Positions 10,685 to 36,862 are shown, numbered from the stretch's first letter. The stretch is DNA of 64,000 nucleotides from an uncultured Bdellovibrionales bacterium (GCA_903833275.1 CAILEP010000015.1:22490-86489); one strand, 5' to 3'. Notes: generated by a model not told the origin, from the letters alone. Made by a program: numbers and translations.

Positions 10685-10705
10685 AGTCTCTCAATGCGTC
10701 CCACT

Positions 10706-16390: not shown

Positions 16391-17207
16391 ATCGCCCAGG
16401 TTCTTGGCGTTCGATTTCGCGTTACCAACTTATCTCGTCACCATCAGCCTCACCTACTGTCTCTGCATCGGCTTCGCTTACATTCGCGCAGTAAAACTCG
16501 ATCGACCCGTAACCATGGCACTCGATATTTGTTTAGCCATCATGGTTGGCGGCTTTTTTGGCGCGCGCCTTTTGCATGTTTTTTATGAAGACCCCTCCTA
16601 CTATTTTTCTAACCCCCTCGAGATCTTCAAGGTCTGGAGGGGCGGCTTTGTTTTTTACGGCGGCCTTTTTGGCGCCTGGCTTGCCTCGTGGATATTAATT
16701 CGTAAACGCGGAGAACTATTCGGCCCCTGGGCTGATTTTTTTGCCCCCGTACTTTCTGTTGGCTACGCCCTGGGCCGTATCGCTTGTTTTCTAAACGGCT
16801 GCTGCTACGGAAAGTTTTGTGAATACCCCTGGGCCGTTGATTTTCATCGCCCCGGGATGCCAATCGGCCCCCGCCACCCAACGCAACTCTATGCCTCGGG
16901 GTTCGAATTTCTGGTCTTTGCTCTGCTTTTATTTCTCGAACCAAAATACCGGCGTCTTTCGGCCCAAGGCTCGAAGTGGGCCCGGCCAGCGCACTTCTTC
17001 ACTCTATGGCTCGCGCTACATTCAATCGGCCGCCTTATCATGGAGCACTTTCGCGACGACGACCGCGGCCCTCTAATCGCCGGCCTAAGCCTCGCAACCT
17101 GGATTAGTCTGTTACTACCCGGCCTGTTTTTTGGTGGACGATGCGTTATCGAGCGGATGCAGCCAATAACGCGGCGTCCACCAAAAAACAGGCCGGGTGG
17201 TTCTTAG
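16362..17207 (+). CDS. lgt: prolipoprotein diacylglyceryl transferase
   Basis: FYGGLFGAWLA, GRIACFLNGCCYG and HPTQLY motifs. The 5' end overlaps lspA. The last ~30 codons are encoded by hairpin repeat copy 1. Confidence 0.85.
   Translation: MWPLIHLSIESPRFLAFDFALPTYLVTISLTYCLCIGFAYIRAVKLDRPVTMALDICLAIMVGGFFGARLLHVFYEDPSYYFSNPLEIFKVWRGGFVFYGGLFGAWLASWILIRKRGELFGPWADFFAPVLSVGYALGRIACFLNGCCYGKFCEYPWAVDFHRPGMPIGPRHPTQLYASGFEFLVFALLLFLEPKYRRLSAQGSKWARPAHFFTLWLALHSIGRLIMEHFRDDDRGPLIAGLSLATWISLLLPGLFFGGRCVIERMQPITRRPPKNRPGGS
17116..17202. repeat. 87-bp hairpin (REP/MITE-like) repeat, copy 1
   Basis: 23-bp perfect stem CCCGGCCTGTTTTTTGGTGGACG / CGTCCACCAAAAAACAGGCCGGG (17118-17140 / 17175-17197). 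A second copy lies at 18791-18877. Confidence 0.75.
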
Positions 17208-17593
17208 AAACACAAAAGATTTGCGATTTGTGTCGAACCGGCGATCGTCACTTTCGATAATGACAAGAACATGCGACCGGCGAGGCCACCGGCAGTGACG
17301 ACGGCTGAATAACCACCGTCTCTGACCTGTGGCTCAGAGCAAGTTAGCAAAACGTAAGTGCGATCACAGCACGGCGGAGCTTTCTGTTTAGACGCTACAC
17401 ACTGAAGAGTGGCGAGCTGTTGTACTCCAGCGATCGTGACCTCGTCGACACTGGCGCGACCACCATCAGTCGAAATCGACACTTGATAACCATTGTCTGG
17501 CCCAGCGTCCACTTCTTTGCAGCGCAATGCCGACGCATTTGCCACCGAACCAATCCCAACCATGACCAGAAATAATAAACTGAGAGTTTTCAC
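17204..17593 (-). CDS. small exported Cys-rich protein with an internal duplication
   Basis: GTG start preceded by AAGGAGG. Signal peptide MKTLSLLFLVMVGIGSVANA. Duplicated VTIAG(V/S)xQ(L/I)AxLxC motif. Confidence 0.55.
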   Translation of the reverse strand: MKTLSLLFLVMVGIGSVANASALRCKEVDAGPDNGYQVSISTDGGRASVDEVTIAGVQQLATLQCVASKQKAPPCCDRTYVLLTCSEPQVRDGGYSAVVTAGGLAGRMFLSLSKVTIAGSTQIANLLCF

Positions 17594-17722: not shown

Positions 17723-18592
17723 TTACTTCTTGGCACCCATATCAAACGCAGATTCGGCCTGCTCGGCAAGAATATTCGATAAGCCCTCAGAATGGGCGTC
17801 GCCAACGATAACCAGAAGGGTCTTTTGCTCGGGGAAGTTACAGAGAACCTGAATGATATTAGAGGCGAACCGACGATTTCTCGCCGATATAAGTGGCATA
17901 TCGGAGCCCTCGACATTGCTGGCCGTGGCCTTAGAGCTCCACCCCTCAATGGCCCCGTATTCAATGCCGATATTGATCGCCGAATTTGAATTAAACATCG
18001 TGCCCTGCCATTCTTTCAGCATAACAAGATGAGAATCGGCGCCATCCAAGTTTTTGCGAATTTTAGCGACGGCCTGAGTGATTGAATCTTGGCTGGGCCC
18101 TTTGGGCGACGGAGCACCGGCGACCATGTTGCCGACGAGAACTCCGTTATAAGAAACTGTCCCATCAGGGCGATAGAAAAAGCCGATGTTACGAGCGTCG
18201 TGAATGGTCGACCCATGAAACCCAACAAGCGGTGCTACCACCTGCAAAGCTTTTGTCGCCGGCACAAGAACCGATGCGATCAGAGGGTTGATATCCGCAG
18301 CCGTCGCCCCTTCGAGCCCGCGCAACTGAAATTCGCTAAGTACTTTTTCGCCAAGCCTTGCGCTATTGCGAGTTTTAAAATGAGTTTCGCCGAAAACGAC
18401 TACGGTTTGAGGAGTATGACAAACATTCAGATCAACAAAATGAACCCAAAACTTACCATTCGCAGCCGCCTCAACAAGAACGCGCTCTTGTCGCGCCGAA
18501 AGCTCGTAGGCCTGAGCCGAATTGAGGCCACAGAGCGATGCCGCGGCCAAACTTACGAAACAAAAAGTCGAGAGCAATTTTGTATTTTTCAT
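17723..18592 (-). CDS. exported hypothetical protein (weak TraB/GumN-like resemblance); N-terminus ambiguous
   Basis: Signal peptide MKNTKLLSTFCFVSLAAASLCGLNSAQA. The VVFGETH...LLVIVGDAH pattern weakly recalls TraB/GumN-type proteins. In-frame ATGs continue upstream through the tandem repeat. Confidence 0.55.
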   Translation of the reverse strand: MKNTKLLSTFCFVSLAAASLCGLNSAQAYELSARQERVLVEAAANGKFWVHFVDLNVCHTPQTVVVFGETHFKTRNSARLGEKVLSEFQLRGLEGATAADINPLIASVLVPATKALQVVAPLVGFHGSTIHDARNIGFFYRPDGTVSYNGVLVGNMVAGAPSPKGPSQDSITQAVAKIRKNLDGADSHLVMLKEWQGTMFNSNSAINIGIEYGAIEGWSSKATASNVEGSDMPLISARNRRFASNIIQVLCNFPEQKTLLVIVGDAHSEGLSNILAEQAESAFDMGAKK

Positions 18593-18660
18593 AGATAGAC
18601 TCATAGATAAAATCATAGATAAACTCATAGATAAACTCATAGATAAACTCATAGATAAAC
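18589..18660. repeat. six tandem copies of a 12-bp unit (TCATAGATAAAC on the plus strand)
   Basis: Direct reading gives units at 18589, 18601, 18613, 18625, 18637 and 18649. The last four are identical and the first two differ by 1 nt each. Each unit carries an ATG on the minus strand in the CDS frame. Confidence 0.9.
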
Positions 18661-18663
18661 AGA

Positions 18664-18681
18664 TGAGCAATTTGCATGCCG
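18664..18681 (-). promoter_or_regulatory. sigma-54 (-24/-12) promoter
   Basis: Minus strand reads CGGCATGcaaaTTGCT against consensus TGGCACG-N4-TTGCW. The GG-to-GC spacing is exact. The predicted start lies inside the 12-bp array. Confidence 0.55.
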
Positions 18682-18790
18682 CAGCCTACTCGCCATTAGC
18701 GCCGTACGACTCGAGCCACGTGGATACTTTTCACAAAGCGGCGCTGATCGGTGTAACTGTTGCCCGACCCACTGCCATAGCGGCCGAAGC

Positions 18791-18877
18791 TACCCGGCCT
18801 GTTTTCTGGTGGACGATGCGTTGTCACCCGAATGCAGCCAATGATGCGGCGTCCACCAGAAAACAGGCCGGGTGGTT
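18791..18877. repeat. 87-bp hairpin (REP/MITE-like) repeat, copy 2
   Basis: About 9 mismatches and no gaps relative to copy 1. Stem 18793-18815 / 18850-18872 carries a compensatory T->C / A->G pair. It sits immediately after the stop of the amidohydrolase gene. Confidence 0.75.
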
Positions 18878-19834
18878 TTAAAGACCGGGGATTTTGAACA
18901 CGGTTTGGGCGTTGTTGTAGAAAACGTCGCGCCAGCGAGCGCGAGGGATGGCGCGTTTCACGGCCCAGATGTAACTTTTCATATCGGTGAGCGGCCAGTC
19001 GGTGCCGTACATTAACTTGTGCGGGTCTTCGACGTATCCATAGGCCCAGCGAATCGGCTTAACCACGTACTCTTCGATATCTTCAGGCGACTTTCTTGTG
19101 AGATCGCCAATCAGAAAAGCCGAAACGTCTGCGTAGACGTTATCGTTTTTGTAAACGATTTCGGCGGCAGTCTGAACCCAAGGGTTACCGAGGTGAGCGA
19201 TAACAAAAGTGACCTTGCGATATTTGACCGCCACTTCGTCAATGGCCATGGGGTCGGCGTACTTCAAAAGCGCGTCAGAATCGTCGGTGTCGCCCGTGTG
19301 AAAAACCACCGGCACGTGATATTTTTCAGCCAATCGATAAGCCGGGTCGTAGCGCTTGTCGTTTGCATATTGTGGCACATAGCCCAGAAAAACTTTGATG
19401 CAACTGTAGCGCTTTTCGCGCAACCCCGCCTCTAGCTTCTTGACATCGACCACGCTGCCAAGAATCGGGCAATAGATCACGTGTTGCGCTTTGAGGTCAT
19501 GCCACTCTTCATTAAATTGCTTGTGGGCCACAGCCCCAACTACGTGATTATCGGCCATCTCTTTGAGAAAGGTCTCGCGACTGTCGACGATCAGACTAAA
19601 GCGGTTGCGCTTGCCGCTAAAGCGCACGTGTACGTGAGCATCGATGATCGGAAAGTCTTCGTCCTCTTTTACGCCTGGTGCGAGGTTGCCCTTGGTTTCA
19701 ACATGCTTCACTTGCGTCGCGCAGCCTGAAAGTGCGACTACAATGACCGCCGATAGGCCTGCCGCGAGTACCAGAGCTCGGGTGAAAAATAAAGCGGCCA
19801 AGATTTGTCGAACGATGAAAACAACGCGCATCAT
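18878..19834 (-). CDS. amidohydrolase-family (TIM-barrel metal hydrolase) lipoprotein
   Basis: Lipobox VVALSGC. Metal-binding IDAHVHV, and later VVFHTGD / IAHLGNPW / YGTDWP motifs typical of the amidohydrolase_2 type. Confidence 0.75.
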   Translation of the reverse strand: MMRVVFIVRQILAALFFTRALVLAAGLSAVIVVALSGCATQVKHVETKGNLAPGVKEDEDFPIIDAHVHVRFSGKRNRFSLIVDSRETFLKEMADNHVVGAVAHKQFNEEWHDLKAQHVIYCPILGSVVDVKKLEAGLREKRYSCIKVFLGYVPQYANDKRYDPAYRLAEKYHVPVVFHTGDTDDSDALLKYADPMAIDEVAVKYRKVTFVIAHLGNPWVQTAAEIVYKNDNVYADVSAFLIGDLTRKSPEDIEEYVVKPIRWAYGYVEDPHKLMYGTDWPLTDMKSYIWAVKRAIPRARWRDVFYNNAQTVFKIPGL

Positions 19835-19888
19835 AAAAGCACTCCTTGAAAGTTGATTTTCTAGAGAAATGCGCGATGCTTAGCAACT

Positions 19889-20620
19889 ATGAAATTCGTG
19901 ATCAGCATTTTAATTTCTCTATCAGCTCTCAGTGCCAGCGCGCGCGAAGGTTTGGTTTTGATTTATTCAGGAGCAGGCAGCTGCACCGACGGTTGCGCAG
20001 AGGCCGCGGCCGAGATCCCGGCGCGAATGGGCTTTCGAATTCAATATGTAAAACCCGAAGAAATTAAACCCGAGCTTTTAAAAACCGCAAAAGTTTGGAT
20101 GCAACCAGGTGGCGATGCCATTGTCGCAGCGAAAGCCATGGGCCCCGAAGGCTTAAGTGCCATTCGAGAATTTGTCAGAGCGGGTGGCGGCTATGTTGGT
20201 TTTTGCGCCGGCGCCTTCTTATCCGACAAAACTGTCGACAATTCTGATGTCACCCCTGGCCTCGGCATTTTACCGATTGGCACCTTTGATTACCCACTCG
20301 ATTCGCACAACGGCGATGGCGCAATGACCTGGATCAACTGGGGCGGCCGACCGCGCCACCTGTTCTTTAACGGTGGCGGTTCGTTTTACCTAAATAAATC
20401 AATTGGCCAGATAAGCCCCGAAGTTAAAGTTCTCGCCACCTTTGTGGCCGACGGATTACCGGCTACCATTGAAACTACCTTCGGCAAAGGCCGCGTCGTG
20501 GTCAGTGGCGCTCACCCCGAAGCCACTTACGCCTGGAAGTCAGAAGGCGGCCTGGTTGACGAAGATGGCCCCGACTTCGATTTAGCCATCGATATGGTTA
20601 GAAAAGCCCTACCTAAATAG
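19889..20620 (+). CDS. exported BPL_N-like / class-I glutamine-amidotransferase-fold protein
   Basis: Signal peptide MKFVISILISLSALSASA. GGGYVGFCAGAF nucleophile-elbow-like motif as in biotin-protein-ligase N-terminal (GATase-1-like) domains. Confidence 0.6.
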   Translation: MKFVISILISLSALSASAREGLVLIYSGAGSCTDGCAEAAAEIPARMGFRIQYVKPEEIKPELLKTAKVWMQPGGDAIVAAKAMGPEGLSAIREFVRAGGGYVGFCAGAFLSDKTVDNSDVTPGLGILPIGTFDYPLDSHNGDGAMTWINWGGRPRHLFFNGGGSFYLNKSIGQISPEVKVLATFVADGLPATIETTFGKGRVVVSGAHPEATYAWKSEGGLVDEDGPDFDLAIDMVRKALPK

Positions 20621-20869
20621 TTCGTCGGGCAACCCCACCGATCGCCCGCCGACTGCCGGCAGATAGCCCGCTGATCATCACCAAACCCGAAGCGTCGGCA
20701 TAAAAAGCCCCAAACCAAGCCTTCAAAGCCTCACTTCGCTATTTCTTTGTAAATTTTTGCTAGCAGATTTTCTTAATTTCCATATAACGCTATGCGTTTA
20801 TTTGGTATATATGCGCCGAATCATTCTCACTAAAACTAACTACTTACGTTAGCAACAAGGTAGGGATTA

Positions 20870-23068
20870 ATGGCAAGTATCAATCTGGCGAAACGCACGG
20901 CTGTCGTATCGACTCTCAGGTCTTCGCTGTTTACTTCATTGGCGTTTTTGCTGCTCTTCGCAAGCATTTCATTCGCCGAACCACTCGCAGACATCCTTAA
21001 AAAAGAATTGGGCGCCAACCCCTCGAAGTCCGAACTGATTCGCGCCCTAAAAAAGCACCGACCGACGGCTGACGAAATAGAATCGCAAGATGTGATGTTA
21101 CCCAAAGAATACACCGAAATTCTCTTCGGCAAAAAACTCGGCAAATTTATAAGCACGGCCCAAGACACCAATCCATTTTTGCACCCCGAGGCTGCTAAAT
21201 ATGGCTTTATGGTTTCAAATGAAGTTGAAGAGCTGGCGGAGTGGCCTTACAGCCCCATCCATGGCCAGGCGTTTTATATTCCGCGCTTTATGATCCCGGC
21301 TGAAAAACTTCAAGTCGGCAACTTTGACGAGCCCAGCGAAATTTCGCCTGAAATTCGCAAACATATATTTGATGGCGAACCAACAGCTCGCAACCAAGAT
21401 ATCAGCTTTTGGATTCACCCTGATGATCTAGACGTTTACGAGAAATTTATTTCGGGTGGGGCAAAGAATACTCCGAAAAAAGGCTACGGCGTTTCATGGA
21501 ATTTTGTTGGCATAGCGCCCAACGGCCCCCGCTCATTGATGATGATCGATATCGATCACCCCGAGCGTGGCGCAATTTGGGTGAAGGTCAATTTGCATAG
21601 AAAGCTTGAAGGTTCGGTGCGCCTGATACCGCCCCATAAGGCGGCACGCTCTGTGATGGCGACCCGCCTGCTTGAAGAAAATGTTTCGACGGCCGACCAA
21701 AAACGCTGGGGCTTTCGGTTTATGCCAGAAGTGGCCGCGTGGTCGTTGCCCTTTTCAGAGCGATCGAACGTTGTTCGCGACTTATCTATATTAGAGAGCC
21801 GCAACGTCGATTACGTTTATGCCTATTCGGCTTTTTCACCGTCAGGTGCTGAGTCGACAAAAGATATTTTGGCGGCAAAATGGCTCGGCCGTAACCCGAC
21901 CAAAGAAAAATTCGAAAAGCTGGCGCGCAAAGTATTTGCTTTGATGGCGCGACCCTTTGCTTACAATGCCCTCGTCACCGGCCTCAATTTTGAATGGCAT
22001 TCGGCCAATTGGGCAATGGCCGTTACTGATAAAGGTCTCGGCGACCATGTGGTCTTGCAAGATATGGAAGCCCTTCGTTACGACTCTCAAATCGGCATCT
22101 GGAATGGCGGCACCGCGCGCTCGATGCAATCATTTACTGAGCCTTGGAATCTCGCCAAATACTCAAACGCACACGGCGGCAGCTGGACTTGGCAAGAAAG
22201 CAAACGCATGAAGGACGGCGGTTATTGGCTCGAAGAACCTGAGTTCTTGGGCGACGAATATCTTTGGCGCGTGCGCGGCCTTAAAGAATCAAAGAGCCCG
22301 AAAGACCAATCGACGATTGATAACCTTTGGGGCTACAGCACGATCGTCGACGTGGTTCGCAATTTCGGTATCGGCGTAATGGGTTTTAAACTCACGAATG
22401 CTGAAGTTGAAAGCTGGATGGACGAAGAAATGGCCACCGCCTTCAATGAGGTTCTGCGCAAAGAACTTAAAATGACAAAAGAGCAAGTGCCTGACGTCAC
22501 CGCCAAGCAAGTGTTGCGCGAAGTGATGCTAATGCGCGATTACGAACAAGTTCACTACGGCGGTTCTAAGCCTGCTGGCGTCGAAAATGTTCGCAAACTC
22601 ATTCACGAAGAAGGCGGCCTGGTGCGCGCGCTTTGGCAAGTGCGTGAAATTCGCAATAACGCCATTACCGAAAAAGACGCCGATGCTTCTCTGCAAAAAC
22701 TGATCGCGGCTGAAGCCGATCGCCTTAATGAGATTCAACGTAACACTCGAAAAGACTGGTACGACCTAACAAAAGACAAAGGTCTCTATTTTATCTTTCA
22801 CGAAGACGCTCGCATTCTAGAAGCACGCGACAAAGAGGGTTGGTTGGGCTTTTTCTCTCTTGAGCCAGACGGCGCTAAAAGCACAAAAGCGTTTTTCGAG
22901 TCTTATAAAAAAATTAAAGGGCGTTACCCAAAAGATGCAACCAAGGCCTCTATGACGGCCTGTCAGAAGCTTCTCGCTTCAGCTGACGTCACTCGCCGGG
23001 GCATGTCGTTCGGCGACCGAGTTGCAAAACCAAAAGGGGCTAAGAAAGGTGTTGGCAGCAATGATTAA
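20870..23068 (+). CDS. exported 732-aa hypothetical protein (possible distant IucA/IucC-like ligase fold)
   Basis: Signal peptide ...LAFLLLFASISFA/EP. First gene of a tightly coupled four-gene set. See the findings for the motif argument. Confidence 0.7.
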   Translation: MASINLAKRTAVVSTLRSSLFTSLAFLLLFASISFAEPLADILKKELGANPSKSELIRALKKHRPTADEIESQDVMLPKEYTEILFGKKLGKFISTAQDTNPFLHPEAAKYGFMVSNEVEELAEWPYSPIHGQAFYIPRFMIPAEKLQVGNFDEPSEISPEIRKHIFDGEPTARNQDISFWIHPDDLDVYEKFISGGAKNTPKKGYGVSWNFVGIAPNGPRSLMMIDIDHPERGAIWVKVNLHRKLEGSVRLIPPHKAARSVMATRLLEENVSTADQKRWGFRFMPEVAAWSLPFSERSNVVRDLSILESRNVDYVYAYSAFSPSGAESTKDILAAKWLGRNPTKEKFEKLARKVFALMARPFAYNALVTGLNFEWHSANWAMAVTDKGLGDHVVLQDMEALRYDSQIGIWNGGTARSMQSFTEPWNLAKYSNAHGGSWTWQESKRMKDGGYWLEEPEFLGDEYLWRVRGLKESKSPKDQSTIDNLWGYSTIVDVVRNFGIGVMGFKLTNAEVESWMDEEMATAFNEVLRKELKMTKEQVPDVTAKQVLREVMLMRDYEQVHYGGSKPAGVENVRKLIHEEGGLVRALWQVREIRNNAITEKDADASLQKLIAAEADRLNEIQRNTRKDWYDLTKDKGLYFIFHEDARILEARDKEGWLGFFSLEPDGAKSTKAFFESYKKIKGRYPKDATKASMTACQKLLASADVTRRGMSFGDRVAKPKGAKKGVGSND

Positions 23069-24248
23069 GCCGCGCAAAGCCTTTATCGCCAGTGCCGCGG
23101 CAGGGCTTTTTGCCCTGTTGACGATCATTTCGACTCTGTCGATTGACCGCGTGTTTGCGGCGCCAACTAAATCAACGCCAACTGCCACTGCAGCGCCAAC
23201 TAAAGCGCCGATCACAGCGGCAATCACTGCGGCAATCACAGAGCAGACGCAAGCGGCCCATCGCGCGGCCGTGCTTTCATATTTTTCTGCCATCGCTCCG
23301 ATCGCCCCGGGTCAACGCTTAACTATGGGTATCGAACTCGAAGGGGTCTTTCCGGGCGCCAGTCGCGAAATGACTTTTCAAAAGCTCGGCGACCTGGTTG
23401 AAACCGAATTTAGAAAACATATTTATACCGGCGCCACTATTCAACGCACGCCTTATAGTTTTCAAACCCGCAGAGGCGAGCCTCGGCAAGCGATAAAACT
23501 AACGGTCTCTTTTGCTGCGCCGTCAAAAAAAGTTGAAGAGTGGCATTTGCGCGATGACGGCTCCATTCGCCCACCATTGGATTTCTACGGGGTTGAATTG
23601 GTAACTCCGATTCTTCGAAAACAAAGTGATGTCGAAAAATTTCGCCGACTTGTGGCTTTTCTATCGGCACAAGGTCTTCGTGCCCAACCTGACTCAGCGG
23701 CCCTTCAGGCCCATGTGGGTTTTACTGAAAACGGCCCGATCGACAAGCAGAGTATTACACCGGCATCGAAAGTGGCCGAGGCTCTTGTTATGATTTTGAC
23801 CTTTTCTAAAATTGAAAAAGAACTTATGCGGCTTTTTGCTGTAAACCCGGCGCGCCAAAAGTTTACCATGCCGACCCCAGAGCCATTGGTGCAAGCCATA
23901 CTCAATGGCGAAATTTCAACGGCGGACACCAAACTTTTTGATGTCGTCGAAAAATACTACGAATATCGCTATTGGGCGCTCAATGTTCATTCGCTTTTTC
24001 AATTCGGCACGGTCGAAGTTCGCTTCGCCAATAGCACAGTTGACCCCTCGACTACCGACGCATTTTTAGACCTAAGCTACAAAATTGTTCGCGCCGTTCG
24101 ATCGAAAGACCCGCGACTTCTTGCGCTACTCAATCAGCACATTGATGAAGAAATACCGTTGATCGAGTTAGCGAGGGCTTTGGATCTTAAAATTATAAAA
24201 TCCATTTATGAACGCGAATGCGCCCAACTTCTTAGAGAGCCATTGTGA
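23061..24248 (+). CDS. exported glutamine-synthetase-fold carboxylate-amine ligase (amidoligase-like)
   Basis: Start ATGATTAA overlaps the upstream stop. Signal peptide MIKPRKAFIASAAAGLFALLTIISTLSIDRVFA. Ordered motifs MGIELEG, WHLRDDGSI...GVELVTPIL, LQAHVGF, YRYWALNV and GTVEVRFANST. Confidence 0.65.
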   Translation: MIKPRKAFIASAAAGLFALLTIISTLSIDRVFAAPTKSTPTATAAPTKAPITAAITAAITEQTQAAHRAAVLSYFSAIAPIAPGQRLTMGIELEGVFPGASREMTFQKLGDLVETEFRKHIYTGATIQRTPYSFQTRRGEPRQAIKLTVSFAAPSKKVEEWHLRDDGSIRPPLDFYGVELVTPILRKQSDVEKFRRLVAFLSAQGLRAQPDSAALQAHVGFTENGPIDKQSITPASKVAEALVMILTFSKIEKELMRLFAVNPARQKFTMPTPEPLVQAILNGEISTADTKLFDVVEKYYEYRYWALNVHSLFQFGTVEVRFANSTVDPSTTDAFLDLSYKIVRAVRSKDPRLLALLNQHIDEEIPLIELARALDLKIIKSIYERECAQLLREPL

Positions 24249-27160
24249 AACTAAAAACCATTGCGCTATCAATTCTAAAGCCGATCGCAGCCCTTTTGGT
24301 ATTTGTGGTCGCGGCGCAGGCCGTCGCGGTTCAAGCCGGCGCGACCCAGGCCGTCGCGGTTCAAGCGATACAGTTCGACGACTATTATTCAGACCCTGTA
24401 GTTCGAACCGCTCTTTCGATGGGCGTGCAATCTGGCGCCTTGACCAAAGCCAACGCTGCGCAGATTTACACGGCGCTTGATTTTGACAAGGCCGATCAGC
24501 GCAAGCCGATCCCGCCCGAATTGGCAGCGACTTGGGCTGAGCTTTTGCGCCTTGCACAGATTCAAACTTTTCTTAGAACCGCAGTGCCGCATTATTTCGC
24601 GGTTGGGGTTGAAATCGAAAGCTCGAGCCCCAAAGAAAATGCCTGGAGCCATTTCGATAACGGCGCTTCAGAAGTTTCGAAACTTATTGCGGCGCGCTTT
24701 GGCCAAAATAGTCTCACCTACAAAGTTGACCCCAACACCGAAGATCGCTTTTTAGAATTTCGCGATGAGCTCAATCGCGAGTGGGCGATGAAACTCGAGT
24801 GGGTGCGCGATGCTGAGGGGGCGCTCTTCCCGAGCGGGTGGGAGACTAATACTCCACCATTTTTTAATCTCGACGATATGGAGCTCTTCAGTTCATTTCT
24901 TTTAAGCCTCGGCAAATCTTCTTACGGCCAGATTGCCGACTTTTGCGGAATACATCAGAACTTTGATATCTTACCGCAAGGCGCGACCGATAGCGAAAAA
25001 GCTGACCAAAAGCTTCAGGCACGCATTGTGGCCAATTTTATTCTACTGCACGAACAATTTCTGCCCACGATTTTAGAGACTTTAAAGATCACGCGGTACG
25101 GCGGCTACGACAATGTCTTTATGCGCCCCTATCTTTTCGATCATCAAGATTTTCTTAAAGAGATTATGGCGACCCCTGCCTCTGCTCTTTCAACCGATTC
25201 GATTCAGAATTTGCAGCAAAAATATTTGCGTCAAGAATTCGAAGCTCAAATTGCAAATCACGTAGACGACCCAGCGGCTCGAGTTAAATACGAAAAGAAC
25301 TGGCAAGAATATAAAATGAACTGGAAGGCCCGTGACGTGCGCATCAAGTGGCATAAAAATACCGCCCGCACGATTCTTGAGAGCCGTTCGATGGACTATA
25401 AGCCCGCTGACCCAAGTGTCGTAATGAAGGGCCACCTCATTATGCAGCTTCTGCTCAATCGCGCCTATGCCCTTGCCAAACACGGCCGACTTCACAAACT
25501 CGACGTGCCCTGGCGCCAAACGGGCGAAAATGTGGCGCAATATTGGTCACGACTTAAAAATGCCCCTTCGACCAATATGTCGGCGATGTTAAAGGGGTTA
25601 GGCGTAAAAGACGAAAATCTCGCAGCCGTTATCGAAGATCGGCCGTTTCATACGACTAAGAAATTTGTGGCTGGCAGCACCTTTAGCTTTGGTTTCGAAG
25701 CTGAATTTATTTCGCCTAAAATTGCGAAGCTTCTTGTGCCGAATCTGCCCGAATTGCGTTCGACTTGGGTTCACCTCAACGAAGAGCAGCGTTTGCGCAT
25801 CTTAAAAGACCTCGGCTTTAATTTTGACGGTGAATACACCTCGCAAAAATATATGATTTTGAGCTCGTTCTTTCGGCTCGATATTGAACACTTTCCGCAA
25901 ATGGAAATTCGCCCCCACCTTGAACAAAGCGGTCGCCTTGAGGTGATGTCAAATGGACGTGGTTTGCAAACAACAGAAGATTTGCGCGCGGCCATGGGCA
26001 AATTGCACAGTGTTTTAACTGAAGACCCCGAGAACAACAAAAATTCGGCAAGAATTAGCTATCACATTCACGAATTTGTGCCCCAAATGTATATCGATCG
26101 CCTGACCGTGACAGAGAAAAAGAAACTCGTGCGGTTGATTGAGCGCCTCAGTCTTTACATGAATCTAGCCGATTACGCTGAACAAGATTCGGCGAAGCCA
26201 AAACATTACATCGACAGCTGGAGTCTTGATCGTTACTCGCCGCGCGATCTCGCTGAAATTGAGGCGCATTTGATTTCAGGCAAGGGCCTTTCTAACACCG
26301 ATCAAAAATACCACAACCTGGGTTTTCGCCCGGTCGATGGTGGCATTGACTTTGAGTTTCGCGCCAATGGTAACGATATCGAATACGGCATCATGCTCAC
26401 CAATGTCTTGCGCAATGCAATTGAGAATCGTGAATTTGAAAACTTCGGCGCGCTCGATCAGCCTCTGTTTTTTATGGAGCCTCAACATTACTCTTCGCCA
26501 AGTGACTATTCGGCCTTTACTCTTTCGGGTGCTTTGAAGTCAGCTGAACGTTCGGCCGCCGCCATGCCACTTACAAAGCAACAGCTTGCCATCGCCCATA
26601 AGCTTCAGTTTGAAATCTATAAACCAAGCCTTTGGGATTATATGTATATGCCTCGCGGCAACTCGATGCACGAAGCACCACCTGAAGATCTCGACATCAC
26701 CCATCTCAGAGCCAACTATGAGAGCAATATTGCATTGCCTCTTCAAGATTGGCAGGCCCAAACATTTCTTTCGGCTGACGAGAAGAAAGCGATTGCGGTC
26801 GCACGACAAAAATATTTGAGTAAAATCGAAGCCCTTATTAAGCGCATTGAGGCAACCCCAGCCGATCAGTTTATTTTAGAGGCAAAAGACTTTTTGAGCC
26901 TCTGCGACTATCTCGAGCGCTCAACGCACTCTTCGAAACCAAATCTCTTGAAGGGCCCCGAGGCCGATCGCCAGCGCGAGGTTCTCGAGAACTTGGTTTA
27001 TGAAATTCGCAGTTACGCCGTCGAATTCGTCAAAGAAACCAAAATTGACGAACTGGTTTTGAGATCGCTGACAAAAAAAACTAGCCAAAGTGATGGCACA
27101 AATTGCAGCGAGCTGTTGAAAGCAACGAGCGAGTCAGGCCACAAGTCATTAGGCCATTAA
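24245..27160 (+). CDS. exported protein with two tandem amidoligase-like domains
   Basis: GTG start overlaps the upstream stop (GTGA). Signal peptide present. Domain 1: VGVEIES, GWETNTPPF, GIHQNFD, TILESRSMD. Domain 2: FGFEAEF, RLEVMSNG, SYHIHEF, GIDFEFRANG. Confidence 0.6.
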   Translation: MKLKTIALSILKPIAALLVFVVAAQAVAVQAGATQAVAVQAIQFDDYYSDPVVRTALSMGVQSGALTKANAAQIYTALDFDKADQRKPIPPELAATWAELLRLAQIQTFLRTAVPHYFAVGVEIESSSPKENAWSHFDNGASEVSKLIAARFGQNSLTYKVDPNTEDRFLEFRDELNREWAMKLEWVRDAEGALFPSGWETNTPPFFNLDDMELFSSFLLSLGKSSYGQIADFCGIHQNFDILPQGATDSEKADQKLQARIVANFILLHEQFLPTILETLKITRYGGYDNVFMRPYLFDHQDFLKEIMATPASALSTDSIQNLQQKYLRQEFEAQIANHVDDPAARVKYEKNWQEYKMNWKARDVRIKWHKNTARTILESRSMDYKPADPSVVMKGHLIMQLLLNRAYALAKHGRLHKLDVPWRQTGENVAQYWSRLKNAPSTNMSAMLKGLGVKDENLAAVIEDRPFHTTKKFVAGSTFSFGFEAEFISPKIAKLLVPNLPELRSTWVHLNEEQRLRILKDLGFNFDGEYTSQKYMILSSFFRLDIEHFPQMEIRPHLEQSGRLEVMSNGRGLQTTEDLRAAMGKLHSVLTEDPENNKNSARISYHIHEFVPQMYIDRLTVTEKKKLVRLIERLSLYMNLADYAEQDSAKPKHYIDSWSLDRYSPRDLAEIEAHLISGKGLSNTDQKYHNLGFRPVDGGIDFEFRANGNDIEYGIMLTNVLRNAIENREFENFGALDQPLFFMEPQHYSSPSDYSAFTLSGALKSAERSAAAMPLTKQQLAIAHKLQFEIYKPSLWDYMYMPRGNSMHEAPPEDLDITHLRANYESNIALPLQDWQAQTFLSADEKKAIAVARQKYLSKIEALIKRIEATPADQFILEAKDFLSLCDYLERSTHSSKPNLLKGPEADRQREVLENLVYEIRSYAVEFVKETKIDELVLRSLTKKTSQSDGTNCSELLKATSESGHKSLGH

Positions 27161-27182
27161 CGCTAAAATGGGGGGCGCCGAT

Positions 27183-28292
27183 ATGAAGAATAATAAATCA
27201 TTTAGAAATATCTTTGCCGCTCTATTTTTATGTGTAGCGACCGCCGTTTTTGTATATGCACCGGTCGATGCGGCGCGAACGGCCGAGCTTTTTATTTGGC
27301 AAAACAGCGAGAGCTCTGCACGCCTGGTGCTTATGCGCACAGGCAAACAAACCTATGAAGAAGCCGCGCGCAAATATCTTAAGGCCTACAACGAAAAAAA
27401 AGACCTTCGAAAAATCGCTGAAGGCCCGTTAAAAATTAAAATCGATTCGGAAAGCTTTCATTCTTTGAGTTCAGAGAGCGCGACGAACAAGCCGCGCTTT
27501 ATCGTTATTGCCGCCGACCCTTATCAAGCCTCTGGGGCGGTCACGGCCAAAAATTGGTATCGTGGTCTTGATACGGCCGGTGCTGATGTTTTCGTGATGC
27601 CGACCGCCGCTGACATTGGCCTCTCGAAAAGTGACTCCAAAACCTATCAAGACCTTATCGCCGAAAACTTTGCCGGAATGCTTTTGCTAGGCGGCAACGA
27701 CATCGACCCCAGCCTGTACGGCGAGAAAAATACCGACTCTGAAGATTTGGCCCCAACTCGGGACGAATCAGAATATGAAATGCTTAAGGCCTATATGAAA
27801 GCTGAAAAGGGCTCGGTTTTTGGTATTTGCCGAGGCCAACAGCTAATCGCCGTGGCGAGCGGCTATAAGTTGATTCAAGATATTCGAAATGACCAGCCCG
27901 ACGTCACAATCAGACACCAAAGCCAAGAGCATCTCGTGCGATTGCTGCCTGTTGCCGGCTCACCCCTCACCCATGCTTTTGAAGATAAAGAGTATCTCAC
28001 CGTGGTTTCGATTCATCACCAAGCTGTCGATATCGACTCGAACAAATCGGGGCCATTAAAGGTTTTGGCTCGCTCCGTTGTTTCGCGAAAATCAGACGCA
28101 AACCCGGCCAAAGACAGCGAGGCTCAAATTGTTGAGGCGATCGCTCTTAAAAATGGTCGCGGTTTTGCCGTGCAGTTTCACCCCGAGATGGTTTACAAAA
28201 CTTTGCTTGGTAGAAAAATATTTTCTGAGATGGTGCGTGTTGCGCGCCTGAAGAGCAAAGTTCGAAAAAGCTGCCTCGCTGAGCTGAAATAG
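27183..28292 (+). CDS. exported peptidase-C26 / class-I glutamine amidotransferase (gamma-glutamyl hydrolase, PuuD-like)
   Basis: Signal peptide MKNNKSFRNIFAALFLCVATAVFVYAPVDA. Catalytic Cys in VFGICRGQQLIAV. His in AVQFHPE. An alternative ATG lies at 27168. Confidence 0.8.
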   Translation: MKNNKSFRNIFAALFLCVATAVFVYAPVDAARTAELFIWQNSESSARLVLMRTGKQTYEEAARKYLKAYNEKKDLRKIAEGPLKIKIDSESFHSLSSESATNKPRFIVIAADPYQASGAVTAKNWYRGLDTAGADVFVMPTAADIGLSKSDSKTYQDLIAENFAGMLLLGGNDIDPSLYGEKNTDSEDLAPTRDESEYEMLKAYMKAEKGSVFGICRGQQLIAVASGYKLIQDIRNDQPDVTIRHQSQEHLVRLLPVAGSPLTHAFEDKEYLTVVSIHHQAVDIDSNKSGPLKVLARSVVSRKSDANPAKDSEAQIVEAIALKNGRGFAVQFHPEMVYKTLLGRKIFSEMVRVARLKSKVRKSCLAELK

Positions 28293-28347
28293 TCAGCGCC
28301 GAGCCTACCCTTAGCCATCGCTTCTTTGTTTACAGTCGAAATCGAAA

Positions 28348-29432
28348 TTACTTTGCGTCGGCACTGCCAGCCGTTGGGGCCTCAACAAACGCTGGTTTCG
28401 CGGTGGCGGGTGGTGAGGTTGCGGCCTCGCCGACTACAGCGGCGTATCGCGGGTCAGAAATATTTTTGCAAACTGTGGCAATAACGGACACCGGTTTTTT
28501 GTCTGAAAGCGCCGTGCAGGATTGTACACCGATTAGTGTGTCTCGCCCGCCGTCTTGGCTGCTCAGCAAAAGTGCCGAACCCGAGTCGCCAGTGTTTGTT
28601 GTCACCGCACTCGCGCCGGTCGTTATACCTTTGAAAATAACTAGGCTTGAATCTCGCAATCGAGTTGGCGCTTCGGGGCCTTGAGCCACGACGACGGGCC
28701 CATGCAAACCGAAATCGTGATGCCCTGGCTCACCCGCCAACGGCTGTGTTTCAGAAGGGTTTTCTGAATGTGAAAAATGCGCTTTGAATAGTTTGCCGTC
28801 AATGGCGCGGGCATCAAGTTTTCGATTGAGCGCATCGCACTCTTCTTGATCTCGCGGCAAGCGTGGGCATCTTACATTGGGCAGTAACTTTACTGGTTCC
28901 TTCAGTTTCACTATCGCCATGTCTTCGTCGTTTACGGACATTAGCTTCGCCTGAAAATCTCTAAATTCTTTATACTCTTTCGAATTGGGGTCGCTGCGCT
29001 TTTTTGAGGCCAGTGGTTCATAGTGAAATATCTTTCGTTGATCTGCGGTTTCTACTTTCGGGCCAGTAAAAACGGCGCTCGCACCCATCGCGAGGTTGAC
29101 GTAGTTAGGCGACTTCTCATTACCAACAGAAATCCGTATCGTTTTGGTCTCGGTTAAATTTTTGGTGTCCTTGATTCTTCCGCTTGAACCATTTGTGATG
29201 TAGTCGAGGCAATGAGATGCCGTTACGAGAGTTTTTTCATCTATCATCATCCCTGAGCATTGGGCCCGGTCAAAATCTTTATTAATATCGTTGTCATTGG
29301 GGCGATCGCCCATATACAGCCGAACTGCACAAGAATTGGGATCTACAACCTCACCTTTTTTTAAAAGTAGGCGGCCTGACTAATCGAATTGGCAGCCAGA
29401 ACAGTCGTTATGATTAAAAACTTTTTGTTCAT
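28348..29432 (-). pseudogene. trypsin-like (S1) serine protease, with signal peptide and catalytic domain in different frames
   Basis: Catalytic ORF 28348..29313 has TASHC, DMAIVKL and GDSGSALL. It stays open upstream to 29379 without an ATG. A separate 23-codon ORF (29432..29364) encodes MNKKFLIITTVLAANSISQAAYF and stops in a T4A7 tract. Confidence 0.6.
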
Positions 29433-29693
29433 ATAAATATTATTTCTCGGGCCTTGCTGGGGGTCAAATCAAGGCGATTTCTCAGGCTTCATGGTTGGTA
29501 AAACTGGAATTTAGTCCACCCCACTCCCGCCCTATAAATTTGTTAAAACCGGTGACCAAAATGGGCACTGTCGAACAATTTACCGAACATATCGCGCCTA
29601 AATAGGCTCAAGACCCCCTCAATTCGAATTAAAAGCCCCCTTGCGGGTGGCACAAAACGTGAAATGGCTAAGCTCAGAACAGGAGTAATTTTT

Positions 29694-30293
29694 ATGAAGA
29701 ACAGCCTTAAATTATTTGCGATGCTCTCGGTTTTAACTGCGGCCCTTTGGGGATGCGGTAAAAGTGATAGCGGCGTAACAGGTGCAAATTGCGCAGCCCA
29801 AGGCTGTTACAATCAGTATGGCGGTTACGGCGGCTACCCAGGCGCCTACAACGGCGTAAGCCCTTCAGCTGTGGTACTTCAAGGTTTTATTAGCCCGGCC
29901 GGCAACAATGCCGCATGGGGTTCGTTTCTGCGCGGCAATCAACTTTGCAACACCATGTTCAACTCGTGCTCGGGCCTTGATGGCGGCGCAGGAGTTACTC
30001 TCATTGTGAATGATGCTAGTTTCTCGGGCCCTCGTGGTGCCTCGACAGGCAATTTGACTATCGAAGCCCAAGCCGGCCAGTTGCCATACAACGTTAATTT
30101 TCTAAAAACGGCTAATGGGTATTCGGCTGGATTGCAAACGGCTCCTTATATTCAGCTGAATTATCACAACACAAATGGCGGCTCGACTTACTTTTTGCAA
30201 GTCGTTGGAGCAGTGAGTGACTCGACGCAAACGGTGCAGTTACTAAATAACGGCGCGGTCGTTGCGCAAGGCACTTTGTCTCGTATACAATAA
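29694..30293 (+). CDS. hypothetical lipoprotein
   Basis: AGGAG lies 9 nt upstream of the ATG at 29694. Leader MKNSLKLFAMLSVLTAALWGC contains a lipobox. A Gly/Tyr-rich stretch follows. Confidence 0.6.
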   Translation: MKNSLKLFAMLSVLTAALWGCGKSDSGVTGANCAAQGCYNQYGGYGGYPGAYNGVSPSAVVLQGFISPAGNNAAWGSFLRGNQLCNTMFNSCSGLDGGAGVTLIVNDASFSGPRGASTGNLTIEAQAGQLPYNVNFLKTANGYSAGLQTAPYIQLNYHNTNGGSTYFLQVVGAVSDSTQTVQLLNNGAVVAQGTLSRIQ

Positions 30294-32995: not shown

Positions 32996-33150
32996 GATAG
33001 ACCTCCATGTCTTCCGCCTCAATCAATCAGCGGTTTATGTAGGGCCCCCTCTACGAGGACCAGCCCTGTTTAGTTACTTTACTCTCGCAACATCACCATC
33101 CTAGCGATGCTACATTCTTGCCTTATACAATTCGTACCCTGACCTAATCT

Positions 33151-33588: not shown

Positions 33589-33597
33589 TGCTCACCT

Positions 33598-34674: not shown

Positions 34675-34677
34675 ATT

Positions 34678-36855: not shown

Positions 36856-36862
36856 ATATTCT

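Follow-up and report, generated by a model that had tools for sequence, protein, structure and literature searches.

A Bdellovibrionales gene module encoding export-type NIS-synthetase-fold, amidoligase-like and C26 hydrolase proteins

A gene module from an uncultured Bdellovibrionales bacterium combines enzymes of bond-forming and bond-cutting families with export-type N-termini. It is recognized by its gene order and coupling, the families and folds of its products, invariant residues of active-site type, synteny among independent loci, and a narrow distribution. Because all of these proteins carry export signals, the module enzymes probably act outside their own cytoplasm, and such extracytoplasmic action of ATP-type enzymes that form bonds, together with enzymes that cut them, is undescribed for these families. 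With a confidence only a little short of even, we propose that they are secreted enzymes of amide-bond ligation and hydrolysis, powered by prey-derived ATP.

Gene organization and coupling

In the window (the whole 64,000-nucleotide stretch of DNA that was analyzed), four ORFs lie in tandem on the plus strand over positions 20870-28292, next to two further genes. The features are as follows, with signal peptides called by a hydropathy heuristic and reading by eye.

18878..19834, minus strand: Amidohydro_2 gene (Pfam PF04909, 89.4 bits), lipoprotein-type N-terminus (…VVALSG/C)
19889..20620, plus strand: BPL_N-type, class-I-GATase-like Cys hydrolase (Pfam BPL_N, 70.4 bits), predicted signal peptide aa 1-18
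20870-23068, plus strand: gene 1, ORF of 732 aa
20870-20977, plus strand: gene 1 predicted signal peptide, aa 1-36
22961-22963, plus strand: gene 1 tail Cys698
23061-24248, plus strand: gene 2, ORF of 395 aa counted from ATG
23061-23159, plus strand: gene 2 predicted signal peptide, aa 1-33
24219-24221, plus strand: gene 2 tail Cys387
24245-27160, plus strand: gene 3, ORF of 971 aa, GTG start
24245-24322, plus strand: gene 3 predicted signal peptide, aa 1-26
24542-25624, plus strand: gene 3 N-half, amidoligase-related, ~aa 100-460 (E123, E125, E200, H237, E379, R381)
25652-26524, plus strand: gene 3 C-half, ~aa 470-760 (E485, E487, E566, H607, H609, E704, R706)
27104-27106, plus strand: gene 3 tail Cys954
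27183-28292, plus strand: gene 4, ORF of 369 aa, alternative ATG at 27168
28272-28274, plus strand: gene 4 tail Cys364

Direct reading of the sequence gives ATGATTAA at 23061-23068 for the junction of genes 1 and 2, and therefore the start of gene 2 overlaps the stop of gene 1. The junction of genes 2 and 3 is GTGA at 24245-24248. After the stop codon of gene 3 (27158-27160), an ATG follows at 27168 with a gap of 7 nt, and another at 27183, preceded by GGGGGG, with a gap of 22 nt. These two overlaps and the 7- or 22-nt gap uphold the translational coupling of the four genes claimed in the first-pass annotation, and gene callers picked the same starts on the identical public contig. The motifs quoted there are likewise all present: MGIELEG, GVELVTP, QAHVGF and VEVRF in gene 2; FGFEAEF, LEVMSNG, YHIHEF and DFEFR in gene 3, all within the C-half; and GICRGQQ and VQFHPE in gene 4. 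In other contigs the gene order is kept at 43-76% protein identity while the flanks are different; thus, genes 1-4 are real genes.

Extent and distribution of the module

Seven of the eight independent loci, whose flanks are unrelated, contain genes 1-3 as a set, which bears out the expectation that they would co-occur in other genomes. The conserved unit, which had been taken to be the four-gene set, is larger. An Amidohydro_2 gene, of a family of metal-dependent hydrolases or decarboxylases, is located beside or near the module in 6/8 loci, with a lipobox-like Cys in three of the four orthologs whose N-termini were examined. The BPL_N-type gene also adjoins the module in 6/8 loci, on varying sides and in varying orientations. 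Its product contains a conserved C32/C36 pair, the nucleophile elbow GFC106AGAF and H209-P-E211, with C106, H209 and E211 invariant in 5 orthologs. Judged by these neighborhoods, the module is a set of about six genes, in which the Amidohydro_2 lipoprotein and the BPL_N-type hydrolase usually accompany the core.

The arrangement varies. At locus L017 gene 1 stands by itself. Locus L018 lacks the C26 gene, so this gene is not obligatory, and contains two gene 3 paralogs whose N-halves have degenerated. Across 185,579 species genomes, gene 1 was found in only two, both of them Bdellovibrionales metagenome-assembled genomes (MAGs), and MAGs of this order are the only named carriers of the module.

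Export signals and the lone-Cys tail

Basic residues, a hydrophobic core and an A-x-A-like site begin the products of genes 1-4 and of both neighboring genes. A Sec signal was defined by a basic n-region, a hydrophobic core of 10-15 residues, and small residues at -3/-1 or a lipobox Cys. By this heuristic, in which cleavage is predicted, an N-terminal hydrophobic core and a Sec or lipoprotein signal were assigned to 32 of the 33 module proteins taken from six loci, an excess over chance when set beside the 7 of 35 other ORFs of at least 200 aa in the window. The twin-arginine motif is absent from the module N-termini. Among orthologs the export-type N-terminus is kept while its sequence diverges, a pattern that, with the 32/33 count, agrees with the export signals proposed earlier for all four genes.

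Genes 1-4 each end in a tail with a lone Cys, similar to C-x-x-L-L, and the mature module proteins are strikingly Cys-poor. In related loci the same Cys tail is found on other signal-peptide-bearing enzymes of ATP type, namely PI3/PI4-kinase-like and ATP-grasp proteins. A tail shared with such predicted exported enzymes leans towards an ATP-containing compartment as the site of action.

Gene 1 has an NIS-synthetase fold in its predicted model

Gene 1 had been annotated as a 732-aa unknown, a description that can now be replaced by the fold of siderophore (NIS) synthetases. Its AlphaFold2 model (pLDDT 78.6, pTM 0.82) was compared with the PDB by Foldseek, and each of the best 50 matches was an NIS synthetase (probability 1.00, E 4e-7 to 9e-4), including SbnC, AsbB, IucC, IucA, NcdF, AcsD, DfoC, DesD, and AlcC. 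The alignments span 400-580 columns, consistent with the three-domain NIS fold in the predicted model. At the sequence level, Pfam IucA_IucC (PF04183) gave 23.0 bits (E 6.7e-5), below the gathering cutoff of 25 bits, and the match is restricted to model positions 140-210. The same family is matched, below cutoff, by 11 of 12 orthologs, four of which match FhuF as well; a search of PDB sequences with the gene 1 family profile found no NIS synthetase.

NIS synthetases adenylate a carboxylate and then couple it to an amine or alcohol. Their universal ATP/Mg ligands are, in DesD numbering, S275, R277, K291, R303, R370, H440, E442, N443, and D460 (PMC9356276). An hhalign alignment of gene 1 with E. 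coli IucA/IucC runs colinearly for 446 columns, with an E of 0.085 that is not significant alone. In that alignment, R221-S222 of gene 1 pair with the S-S-R-S of the SxRS motif, K239 and R251 with the K and R ligands, the H377/N380 pair with HxxN, and D398 with the D ligand. Conservation scored over 12 orthologs found R221, S222, K239, R251, H377, N380 and D398 to be invariant; E400 is an invariant residue of gene 1 as well. Two ligand positions are substituted, by G219 for Ser and A379 for Glu/Gln, and the ligand alignment, which is an alignment of motifs and not of superposed structures, gives no clear equivalent of R370. In its predicted model, gene 1 has the features of an exported-type NIS-synthetase-fold (IucA/IucC-like) protein in which most ATP/Mg positions are kept; because of that fold and those positions, it may be regarded as a further ATP-type ligase.

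Gene 1 has the overall fold in common with IucA/IucC, AcsD, AsbB, SbnC, and DesD, and by motif alignment it may also share most of the nucleotide/Mg site of SxRS, K, R and HxxN...D. Unlike these enzymes, it has a predicted signal peptide, additional regions at both ends and the Cys tail, scores below the Pfam cutoff, has the two substituted ligand positions, and lies outside any siderophore cluster. At none of the 8 loci is the module accompanied by a conserved gene for a precursor enzyme (decarboxylase, monooxygenase, acyltransferase), an exporter or a receptor, and the neighboring genes do not make up an NIS siderophore biosynthetic cluster. To our knowledge the known NIS synthetases are cytoplasmic, and no example of an exported one was found in the literature searched.

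Genes 2 and 3 and the amidoligases

The amidoligase-type assignment of gene 2 stands: Pfam Amidoligase_2 (PF12224) matches it over model positions 2-239 of 245, scoring 53.5 bits (cutoff 22, E 4e-14), and is also present in all ten close relatives. G90, E92, E94, D166, E179, H218, E319 and R321 are invariant in alignments of 6 and 11 sequences. In 2009, Iyer, Abhiman, Burroughs and Aravind reportedly defined the Amidoligase_2 group of carboxylate-amine ligases with the glutamine synthetase (GS) fold by computational means. Searches of structure sequences found no member among solved structures, and we therefore infer the roles of the amidoligase residues.

The gene 3 protein of the window has no sequence match in Pfam, NCBIfam or the PDB. 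Its AlphaFold2 model (pLDDT 85.5, pTM 0.83), searched as a whole protein against the PDB, gave glutamine synthetases and E. coli GshA as the top Foldseek matches, with probability 0.91-1.00, E of only ~6e-3 and target TM-scores of 0.30-0.35; a 1-naphthylamine GS was among them. In a viral library, the top named matches were phage proteins labeled 'Amidoligase enzyme' (probability 1.0, TM-score up to 0.52). The model is thus GS-like, with matches given for the protein as a unit and not by half. Both halves keep their acidic, His and Arg motif residues unchanged among 19-20 homologs, and these residues fall on predicted strands or at strand ends. A helical C-terminal region extends beyond the C-half.

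The two halves fare differently in profile comparisons. PF12224 is matched by 8 of 20 gene 3 orthologs, always at ~aa 100-220, and ortholog P0018 exceeds the cutoff with 31.7 bits. By hhalign, the N-half aligns with probability 99.9 and E 6e-32 over 317 columns to a mixed alignment of the gene 2 family and distant relatives, several of them positive for Pfam Amidoligase_2. On this sequence evidence, the N-half is best described as a divergent relative of the amidoligases. The C-half gave hhalign E values of 0.13 against gene 2 and 0.09 against the N-half (0.55-0.77 when secondary structure was added), and no Pfam match fell within it in any ortholog. Its motifs, in the order ExE, E, HxH, ExR, are placed relative to predicted strands in the same way as those of the N-half. 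It appears to be a distinct conserved domain with the amidoligase motif order and no profile link to amidoligases, their homology being unproven. The earlier proposal that both halves are amidoligase-like consequently holds for the N-half, with the P0018 match, the hhalign result and the fold behind it; for the C-half, motif order and strand placement fit.

Stand-alone distant relatives of gene 3 have an export-type N-terminus in all 20 complete sequences (2 others are fragments), and some carry fused HhH domains of the ComEA type, typically seen in proteins that bind DNA outside the cytoplasm. As in Amidoligase_2, the motif set GxExE, E, H, ExR is found in gene 2 and the gene 3 N-half. Unlike that family as defined, the proteins here are of exported type, a single operon contains the type three times over along with an NIS-fold enzyme, and the gene 3 C-half forms a domain apart.

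Gene 4 and known ligase and hydrolase pairs

Gene 4 matches Pfam Peptidase_C26 (PF07722) with 97.7 bits (cutoff 20.5) and GATase with 46.7 bits, and its triad of C216, H333 and E335 is invariant in 6 orthologs, in accordance with the earlier C26/GATase-1 assignment. Among PDB sequences it matches Lin1909 (3fij, E 4.6e-11) and PuuD (6vtv); no fold was assigned to its N-terminal extension of ~150 aa. Peptidase_C26 enzymes cleave gamma-glutamyl amides. In PuuA/PuuD-type pairs, a GS-family ligase and a C26 hydrolase perform gamma-glutamylation and deglutamylation in amine catabolism, and ligase-type genes of GS fold are paired with Peptidase_C26 in the module too. The Puu pathways, however, are cytoplasmic and contain enzymes that oxidize the protected amine, whereas the module has no conserved gene for an oxidase or dehydrogenase, and L018 has no C26 gene at all.

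Proposed working of the module

Each module product would leave the cytoplasm via the Sec pathway. Gene 1, from an NIS-synthetase-fold family, would activate a carboxylate by forming an acyl-adenylate; gene 2, from the Amidoligase_2 GS-fold family, would use an acyl-phosphate; and gene 3 would be the two-domain amidoligase-like protein of the coupled core. With ATP, the exported ligases may join carboxylates and amines as amide or isopeptide bonds, and the Cys hydrolases may cleave amides of the gamma-glutamyl type, which would trim or reverse the product or else free ammonia from glutamine. No transporter, regulator or precursor gene that would hint at the substrate is conserved at the module loci. 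Because the periplasm is normally without ATP, the site of action would most likely be an ATP-containing space supplied by prey, either the prey cytoplasm or the invaded prey cell, and the products would be putative predation enzymes. Our literature search found no report of ATP in the relevant compartment.

Lig E, a periplasm-targeted, ATP-dependent ligase with an N-terminal export leader, is the best precedent in print for this paradox. It resembles the module enzymes in combining an export leader with chemistry that needs ATP, but it is a single protein, unrelated in fold and substrate, and holds AMP covalently on a lysine. Because of this covalent AMP, Lig E could in principle be charged before export. 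We know of no covalent enzyme-nucleotide intermediate in NIS- and GS-type ligases.

A broader version of the proposal is rather doubtful: Bdellovibrio-type predators would secrete a whole set of ATP-dependent enzymes, marked by a Sec signal and a basic-Cys-x-x-Leu-Leu tail, to which the module would contribute an NIS-type adenylating ligase, three GS-type ligase domains and the accompanying hydrolases. Inside prey, these enzymes would draw on prey ATP and use prey metabolites or peptides of the cell wall to make or remake amide-linked products. If true, these ligase families would have their first pathway outside the cytoplasm, with the tail as a previously undescribed sorting or tethering signal.

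Export of all products to a space normally without ATP would also suit enzymes that do not use it. Repurposed ligase folds might cut or exchange bonds in the envelope or in prey polymers (peptidoglycan stem peptides, gamma-glutamyl compounds) by amide transfer or hydrolysis with no net ATP; the three hydrolases accompanying the ligase-fold proteins, the two substituted NIS ATP-ligand positions of gene 1 and the persistence of the module at L018 with degenerate N-halves agree with this. We consider it unlikely, for the residues by which the parent families bind metal and nucleotide do not vary in gene 1, gene 2 or either half of gene 3, and no module protein resembles a known transpeptidase. 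Dop is a repurposed member of the PafA/Dop pair of GS-fold enzymes, and because Dop-type enzymes keep such residues too, this invariance is not decisive for or against ATP use. Ligase-fold proteins acting as mere binding proteins are disfavored, because every catalytic-type residue is invariant.

Use of the enzymes on the producer's own envelope is less likely again. Amino-acid or polyamine decorations would be added to and trimmed from its own peptidoglycan, lipopolysaccharide or surface proteins, in its periplasm or at its surface, with leaked or exported nucleotide. MurT/GatD-type pairs of ligase and GATase, which amidate peptidoglycan, offer a loose analogy, and Lig E is an existing periplasm-targeted ATP-dependent ligase; Sec-type signals with a lipoprotein member would be expected, and lone tail cysteines could form disulfides in an oxidizing periplasm. 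However, no ATP supply route is known for it, the same tail occurs on exported kinase-like proteins that likewise require ATP, and the named carriers are MAGs of a predatory order and not Gram-negatives generally.

An ordinary cluster for a siderophore-like or peptide-like metabolite, working in the cytoplasm or at the membrane face with the N-termini as anchors of cytoplasmic catalytic domains, would have ATP at hand and would explain the small-molecule look of an NIS-fold enzyme with amide ligases, but it is very improbable given the lack of conserved precursor-enzyme, exporter and receptor genes, the short hydrophobic cores with A-x-A-like sites whose preceding basic residues place the bulk of the protein outside (positive-inside rule), the lipobox-like Cys sites on the amidohydrolases, the few cysteines of the mature proteins, and the ComEA-like domains on distant relatives.

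Organization of the gene cluster

The cluster found in the window consists of a core of four plus-strand genes and two accessory genes, which are listed below. Genes 1 and 2 share ATGATTAA at 23061-23068, and genes 2 and 3 share GTGA at 24245-24248, as read directly off the sequence. The stop codon of gene 3 ends at 27160. Gene 4 has two candidate ATG codons, at 27168 and 27183, the latter preceded by GGGGGG, a Shine-Dalgarno-like run. Reading frames and junctions were read again in the sequence; the four coupled same-strand genes of the first-pass annotation were recovered, together with all of the motifs that it had quoted. In an identical metagenome contig (96.8 kb, ENA ERZ27313616), the gene callers picked the same starts. 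Base composition is even over the region, and so there is no sign of recent insertion.

Genes of the cluster in the window
18878-19834, minus strand: accessory gene, Amidohydro_2
19889-20620, plus strand: accessory gene, BPL_N-type
20870-23068, plus strand: gene 1, 732 aa, predicted NRPS-independent siderophore (NIS) synthetase fold; tail Cys C698 at 22961-22963
23061-24248, plus strand: gene 2, 395 aa counted from ATG, Amidoligase_2; tail Cys C387 at 24219-24221
24245-27160, plus strand: gene 3, 971 aa, start codon GTG, two-domain amidoligase-like; tail Cys C954 at 27104-27106
27183-28292, plus strand: gene 4, 369 aa, Peptidase_C26; tail Cys C364 at 28272-28274

The finding is real and goes beyond its first description: there is a fourth domain of ligase type, the unit comprises six genes, the exported clade is broader, and a C-terminal tail is shared. 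The parts themselves belong to known superfamilies, genes 2 and 4 as members and the N-terminal half of gene 3 as a divergent member.

Family assignment of genes 1, 2 and 4

Gene 2 is a clear Pfam Amidoligase_2 protein (53.5 bits against a cutoff of 22), as had been proposed, and about 10 close relatives are found. PDB-chain searches with the gene 2 protein and its family profile, and likewise with the gene 1 protein and its family profile, gave nothing useful. The ricin-B lectins that appeared for the gene 2 profile matched only a short W..DGSIRP motif (E 0.05-3) and were judged to be chance. The C26/GATase-1 assignment of gene 4 also holds, with clear Pfam matches to Peptidase_C26/GATase (97.7 and 46.7 bits) and with C216, H333 and E335 invariant in 6 orthologs. 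Lin1909 and PuuD are the closest solved structures by sequence.

Gene 1 had been left as an unknown, which is corrected here by a structural match. Its AlphaFold2 model (pLDDT 78.6, pTM 0.82) retrieved only NIS synthetases in the top 50 places of the PDB structure search, with probability 1.00 and E down to 4e-7; the enzymes matched are SbnC, AsbB, IucC, IucA, NcdF, AcsD, DfoC, DesD and AlcC. The Pfam IucA_IucC match of gene 1 reaches 23 bits, below the 25-bit cutoff. This sub-threshold match is repeated in 11 of 12 orthologs, and FhuF, the C-terminal domain of NIS synthetases, is also touched in 4 of the 12. The phosphate and Mg ligands common to all NIS types are, in DesD numbering, S275, R277, K291, R303, R370, H440, E442, N443 and D460 (PMC9356276). 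With the genuine IucA and IucC of plasmid pAPEC-O2-ColV as reference, the gene 1 family aligned colinearly over 446 columns, a match that is weak by itself (E 0.085). This weak alignment pairs R221-S222 with SSRS, K239 and R251 with the ATP-loop Lys and Arg, H377/N380 with HxxN, and D398 with the Mg-binding Asp. These gene 1 residues do not vary among 12 orthologs. Substitutions at ligand positions are G219 in place of Ser and A379 in place of Glu/Gln, and the alignment gives no clear counterpart of R370. Judging by sequence and model, gene 1 is an NIS-fold protein with a predicted nucleotide site that is largely, not fully, canonical. It lacks two marks of an NIS synthetase, a score above the family sequence threshold and the corresponding genomic context.

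The two halves of gene 3

The gene 3 protein of the window has no match in Pfam, NCBIfam or PDB sequences, and only two relatives besides itself were found in a database of 5.8 billion clusters. An exhaustive search with the family profile, covering 1.84 billion representatives, returned about 20 full-length family members and a tail of distant matches at profile positions of about 100-320, several of which are Pfam Amidoligase_2 proteins. Amidoligase_2 is matched by 8 of 20 gene 3 orthologs, in the N-terminal half every time and once above the cutoff. The profile of this half also matches a mixed alignment of distant relatives and the gene 2 family (E 6e-32, 317 columns). In the PDB, the confident AlphaFold2 model of gene 3 (pLDDT 85.5, pTM 0.83) matches glutamine synthetases (GS) and the gamma-glutamylcysteine synthetase of E. 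coli, with a probability of 0.91-1.00, though with E about 6e-3 and a TM-score of 0.30-0.35. Among viral models it matches phage entries named 'Amidoligase enzyme', with a probability of 1.0 and TM-scores reaching 0.52. On these ortholog, profile and model matches, the N-terminal half is assigned as a divergent amidoligase, and the earlier proposal stands for this half.

No sequence or profile comparison ties the C-terminal half, at most a candidate amidoligase domain, to the N-terminal half, gene 2 or Amidoligase_2. To look for an internal duplication, the profiles of the two halves were compared with each other, and that of the C-terminal half with the gene 2 profile, both with AlphaFold secondary structure and without it; none of these comparisons was significant. 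Invariant E-x-E, E, H-x-H and E-x-R succeed one another in the C-terminal half as they do in the N-terminal half, placed on predicted strands or at strand ends. In most distant relatives of gene 3, too, the amidoligase domain is followed by a domain of this kind (hmmsearch E 1e-9 to 1e-22). It is judged to be a real, constrained domain because it is kept both in these relatives and in the paralogs of locus L018, where the N-terminal halves have decayed. The L018 paralogs are tandem copies (6638-9103 and 9113-11746; 821 and 877 aa) in which the C-terminal half is almost intact, the tail Cys is kept and the N-terminal half is almost unrecognisable; this locus is without a C26 gene.

Conservation and distribution of the six-gene unit

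Loci were fetched through homologs of gene 3 and gene 1. The order 1-2-3-4 is found in the window and in L001, L005/L006, L007, L008 and L009/L010, with unrelated flanks each time; co-occurrence of the gene set in other genomes is thereby supported. In most of these loci the BPL_N-type and Amidohydro_2 proteins adjoin the core, with variable side and orientation. Of the 8 loci, 7 contain genes 1-3 together; gene 4, BPL_N and Amidohydro_2 are each present in 6. Gene 3 is duplicated in the L018 module, and the gene 1 homolog of L017 is solitary. In a scan of 185,579 species, with one genome for each, gene 1 was present in 2, both 'Bdellovibrionales bacterium' MAGs, and a third homolog carries the same label. 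The carriers are without exception uncultured.

The BPL_N protein is probably a further Cys-His-Glu hydrolase, since the GFC(A/S)GAF nucleophile elbow and the HPE motif are kept. Separate from the nucleophile C106, a pair of Cys (C32 and C36; window 19982-19996) sits just past the signal peptide. It reads C-x-x-x-C here and C-x-x-C in orthologs, is invariant in 5 of 5 orthologs, and could form a disulfide or bind a metal.

Predicted export signals and the wider exported-type clade

In every family and locus, the N-termini combine basic residues, a short hydrophobic core and a small-residue site, and a lipobox-like Cys is present in 3 of 4 Amidohydro_2 orthologs examined. The proposal of export-type N-termini was upheld by a simple hydropathy test, which flagged 32 of 33 module proteins against 7 of 35 other large ORFs of the window; the start of the single unflagged protein seems to have been mis-called. 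Between orthologs the sequence of the N-termini is not conserved, as is expected for signal peptides. The module N-termini are without a twin-arginine motif, and the mature proteins are very Cys-poor. In-frame short tandem repeats lie right after the signal peptides of gene 2 (ITAAITAAIT, 23211-23241) and gene 3 (AQAVAVQAGATQAVAVQA, 24308-24366); they are low-complexity linkers, missing from orthologs.

The distant, stand-alone relatives of gene 3 give independent support for export: of the 22, the 20 that are complete all have an N-terminal signal peptide or lipobox, and the GxExE strand comes immediately after it. P0047 and P0055 were viewed in genomic context and stand alone, without NIS or C26 neighbours. 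Clade versions of 1342-2426 aa, from Planctomycetota MAGs where a source is named, have added ComEA-type HhH domains, and others have added HEAT repeats; the largest of these relatives are Planctomycetota proteins with one or the other fusion. Together the gene 3 relatives define a broader clade of amidoligase-like proteins with export-type N-termini, none of them characterised, to which the Planctomycetota versions with fused DNA-binding domains belong.

Exported-type proteins with amidoligase and gene-3-C-half-like domains
P0047-P0068: homologous proteins from the profile search
L013, 6102-8552: clade member
L014, 1437-4367: clade member

The C-terminal Cys tail

The products of genes 1-4, and not those of the two accessory genes, finish with a tail that is flexible and frequently basic. 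Its general form is (basic)-C-x-x-(L/A/V)-(L/A/V)-x(0-30)-end, with a single conserved Cys. The tail Cys is often the sole Cys of the mature protein, as in 11 of 12 gene 1 orthologs. The tail is also found on 12 of 14 complete non-Planctomycetota stand-alone relatives and on 9 of 10 close relatives of gene 2. Moreover, it occurs on unrelated signal-peptide-bearing proteins: two PI3/PI4-kinase-like paralogs (L017), a circularly permuted ATP-grasp protein beside the L007 module, and three unknowns. It thus marks several exported-type enzymes whose families would need ATP. Outside the module, the strict tail is present in 6 of 46 signal-peptide-like ORFs against 2 of 66 others, with a background of 1.3% at internal pseudo-termini.

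Unrelated proteins with the tail
L017, 9515-10477, minus strand
L017, 10474-11427, minus strand
L017, 2218-3483, minus strand
L007, 16398-18065, minus strand
L007, 5542-6912, plus strand
L014, 9857-11338, minus strand

No Pfam or NCBIfam model matches the tail, and a literature search found no paper describing it or a Bdellovibrio C-terminal Cys tag. It could be a lineage-specific sorting signal, tether or disulfide; on unrelated exported-type ATP enzymes, it may represent a new sorting or tethering signal. A CaaX-type prenylation signal has its Cys at the canonical -4 position, with three residues after it; the tail Cys is 4-35 residues away from the end and never takes that position, for which reason this explanation was rejected. 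A staple specific to a four-protein complex is weakened as an explanation by the tails of the stand-alone relatives and unrelated proteins.

Possible function and site of action

NIS synthetases form amides through acyl-adenylates and GS-fold enzymes through acyl-phosphates, and C26 enzymes hydrolyze gamma-glutamyl amides or glutamine. From this family chemistry, the module would act beyond the cytoplasm of the producer, joining carboxylates to amines through amide or isopeptide bonds and also cutting such bonds. A purely binding role, one of the readings offered at first, is unlikely because the catalytic-type residues are invariant.

Both NIS synthetases and GS-fold amidoligases are known as ATP-requiring enzymes of the cytoplasm, and the periplasm is normally without ATP. 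Our leading, still tentative, reading places the site of action in a prey-derived, ATP-containing compartment, because ATP is needed yet normally absent from the periplasm, the named carriers belong only to a predatory order, and other ATP-type enzymes bear the same signal and tail. A Bdellovibrio metabolic-model paper is silent on extracytoplasmic ATP. Less probably, the ligase folds would have been repurposed for transfer or hydrolysis independent of ATP. Somewhat less probable again is a decoration system for the producer's own envelope; export-type N-termini agree with it, and its ligases would have to work where ATP is normally absent. A metabolite cluster facing the cytoplasm, the usual place of such ligases, is very improbable for proteins with export-type N-termini. 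The classic DAP-attaching activity is known from B. bacteriovorus; it was set aside as the module function, the gene 1 species scan having returned two MAG loci and no cultured Bdellovibrio genome.

To our knowledge, the combination of an NIS-fold enzyme with amidoligases is not found in any described system, nor is its export. A literature search found no paper on exported amidoligases or exported NIS enzymes. The module resembles PuuA/PuuD in pairing a GS-type ligase with a C26 hydrolase; however, the intervening oxidative steps of that pathway are absent. The Klebsiella fimbrial-modification enzyme, considered as a parallel, belongs to the ATP-grasp proteins and has no bearing here. Lig E is a case of an ATP-dependent ligase that is targeted to the periplasm; its authors leave the ATP source unsettled.

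An operon with export signals on all of its ligases challenges the assumption that such amide-bond ligation stops at the inner membrane. The prey-modifying chemistry of the order is only partly known, and the module offers testable candidate predation enzymes. If prey ATP is used, it would represent a new class of bacterial effector chemistry; if ATP-free, it would provide new cases of ligase folds turned into transferases or hydrolases.

Non-coding and flanking sequences

Counts in a promoter/terminator consensus scan equalled the shuffled expectation, and the scan is silent on operon boundaries. No riboswitch or leader was found in an Rfam scan of 18600-29700 (E up to 1), which returned only microRNA-like matches. 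A long hairpin at 18782-18886, just beyond the 3' end of the minus-strand Amidohydro_2 gene, draws weak microRNA-family matches on both strands and is probably the terminator of that gene. Leaders upstream of gene 1, aligned from 7 loci, show no conservation (mean identity 29%). A TGTAA(A/T)nTTTTG(C)-like box at about 20742-20758 recurs in 4 of these 7 otherwise unalignable leaders (window, L007, L008 and L009); it is a possible promoter or operator element, or the recurrence could be due to chance where the DNA is AT-rich.

Downstream of the module, an ordinary flagellar cluster (31700-43000, minus strand) contains FlgE (hook), FlgD and hook-length-control Pfam domains, with no evident link to the module. 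Three likely secreted proteins lie beside the module in this genome only.

Likely secreted flanking proteins
17204-17593, minus strand: small Cys-containing protein ending ...LLCF
17723-18670, minus strand: weak TraB/ChaN/Tiki-like matches
28348-29313, minus strand: trypsin-like protease

A perfect-looking 12-bp tandem repeat, TCATAGATAAAC, occupies 18589-18660 in 6 copies (95% match), at the 5' end of the ORF at 17723-18670 or immediately upstream of it. Translated, it reads MSLSMSLS..., and the true start of this ORF is likely MKNTKLL..., downstream of the repeat.
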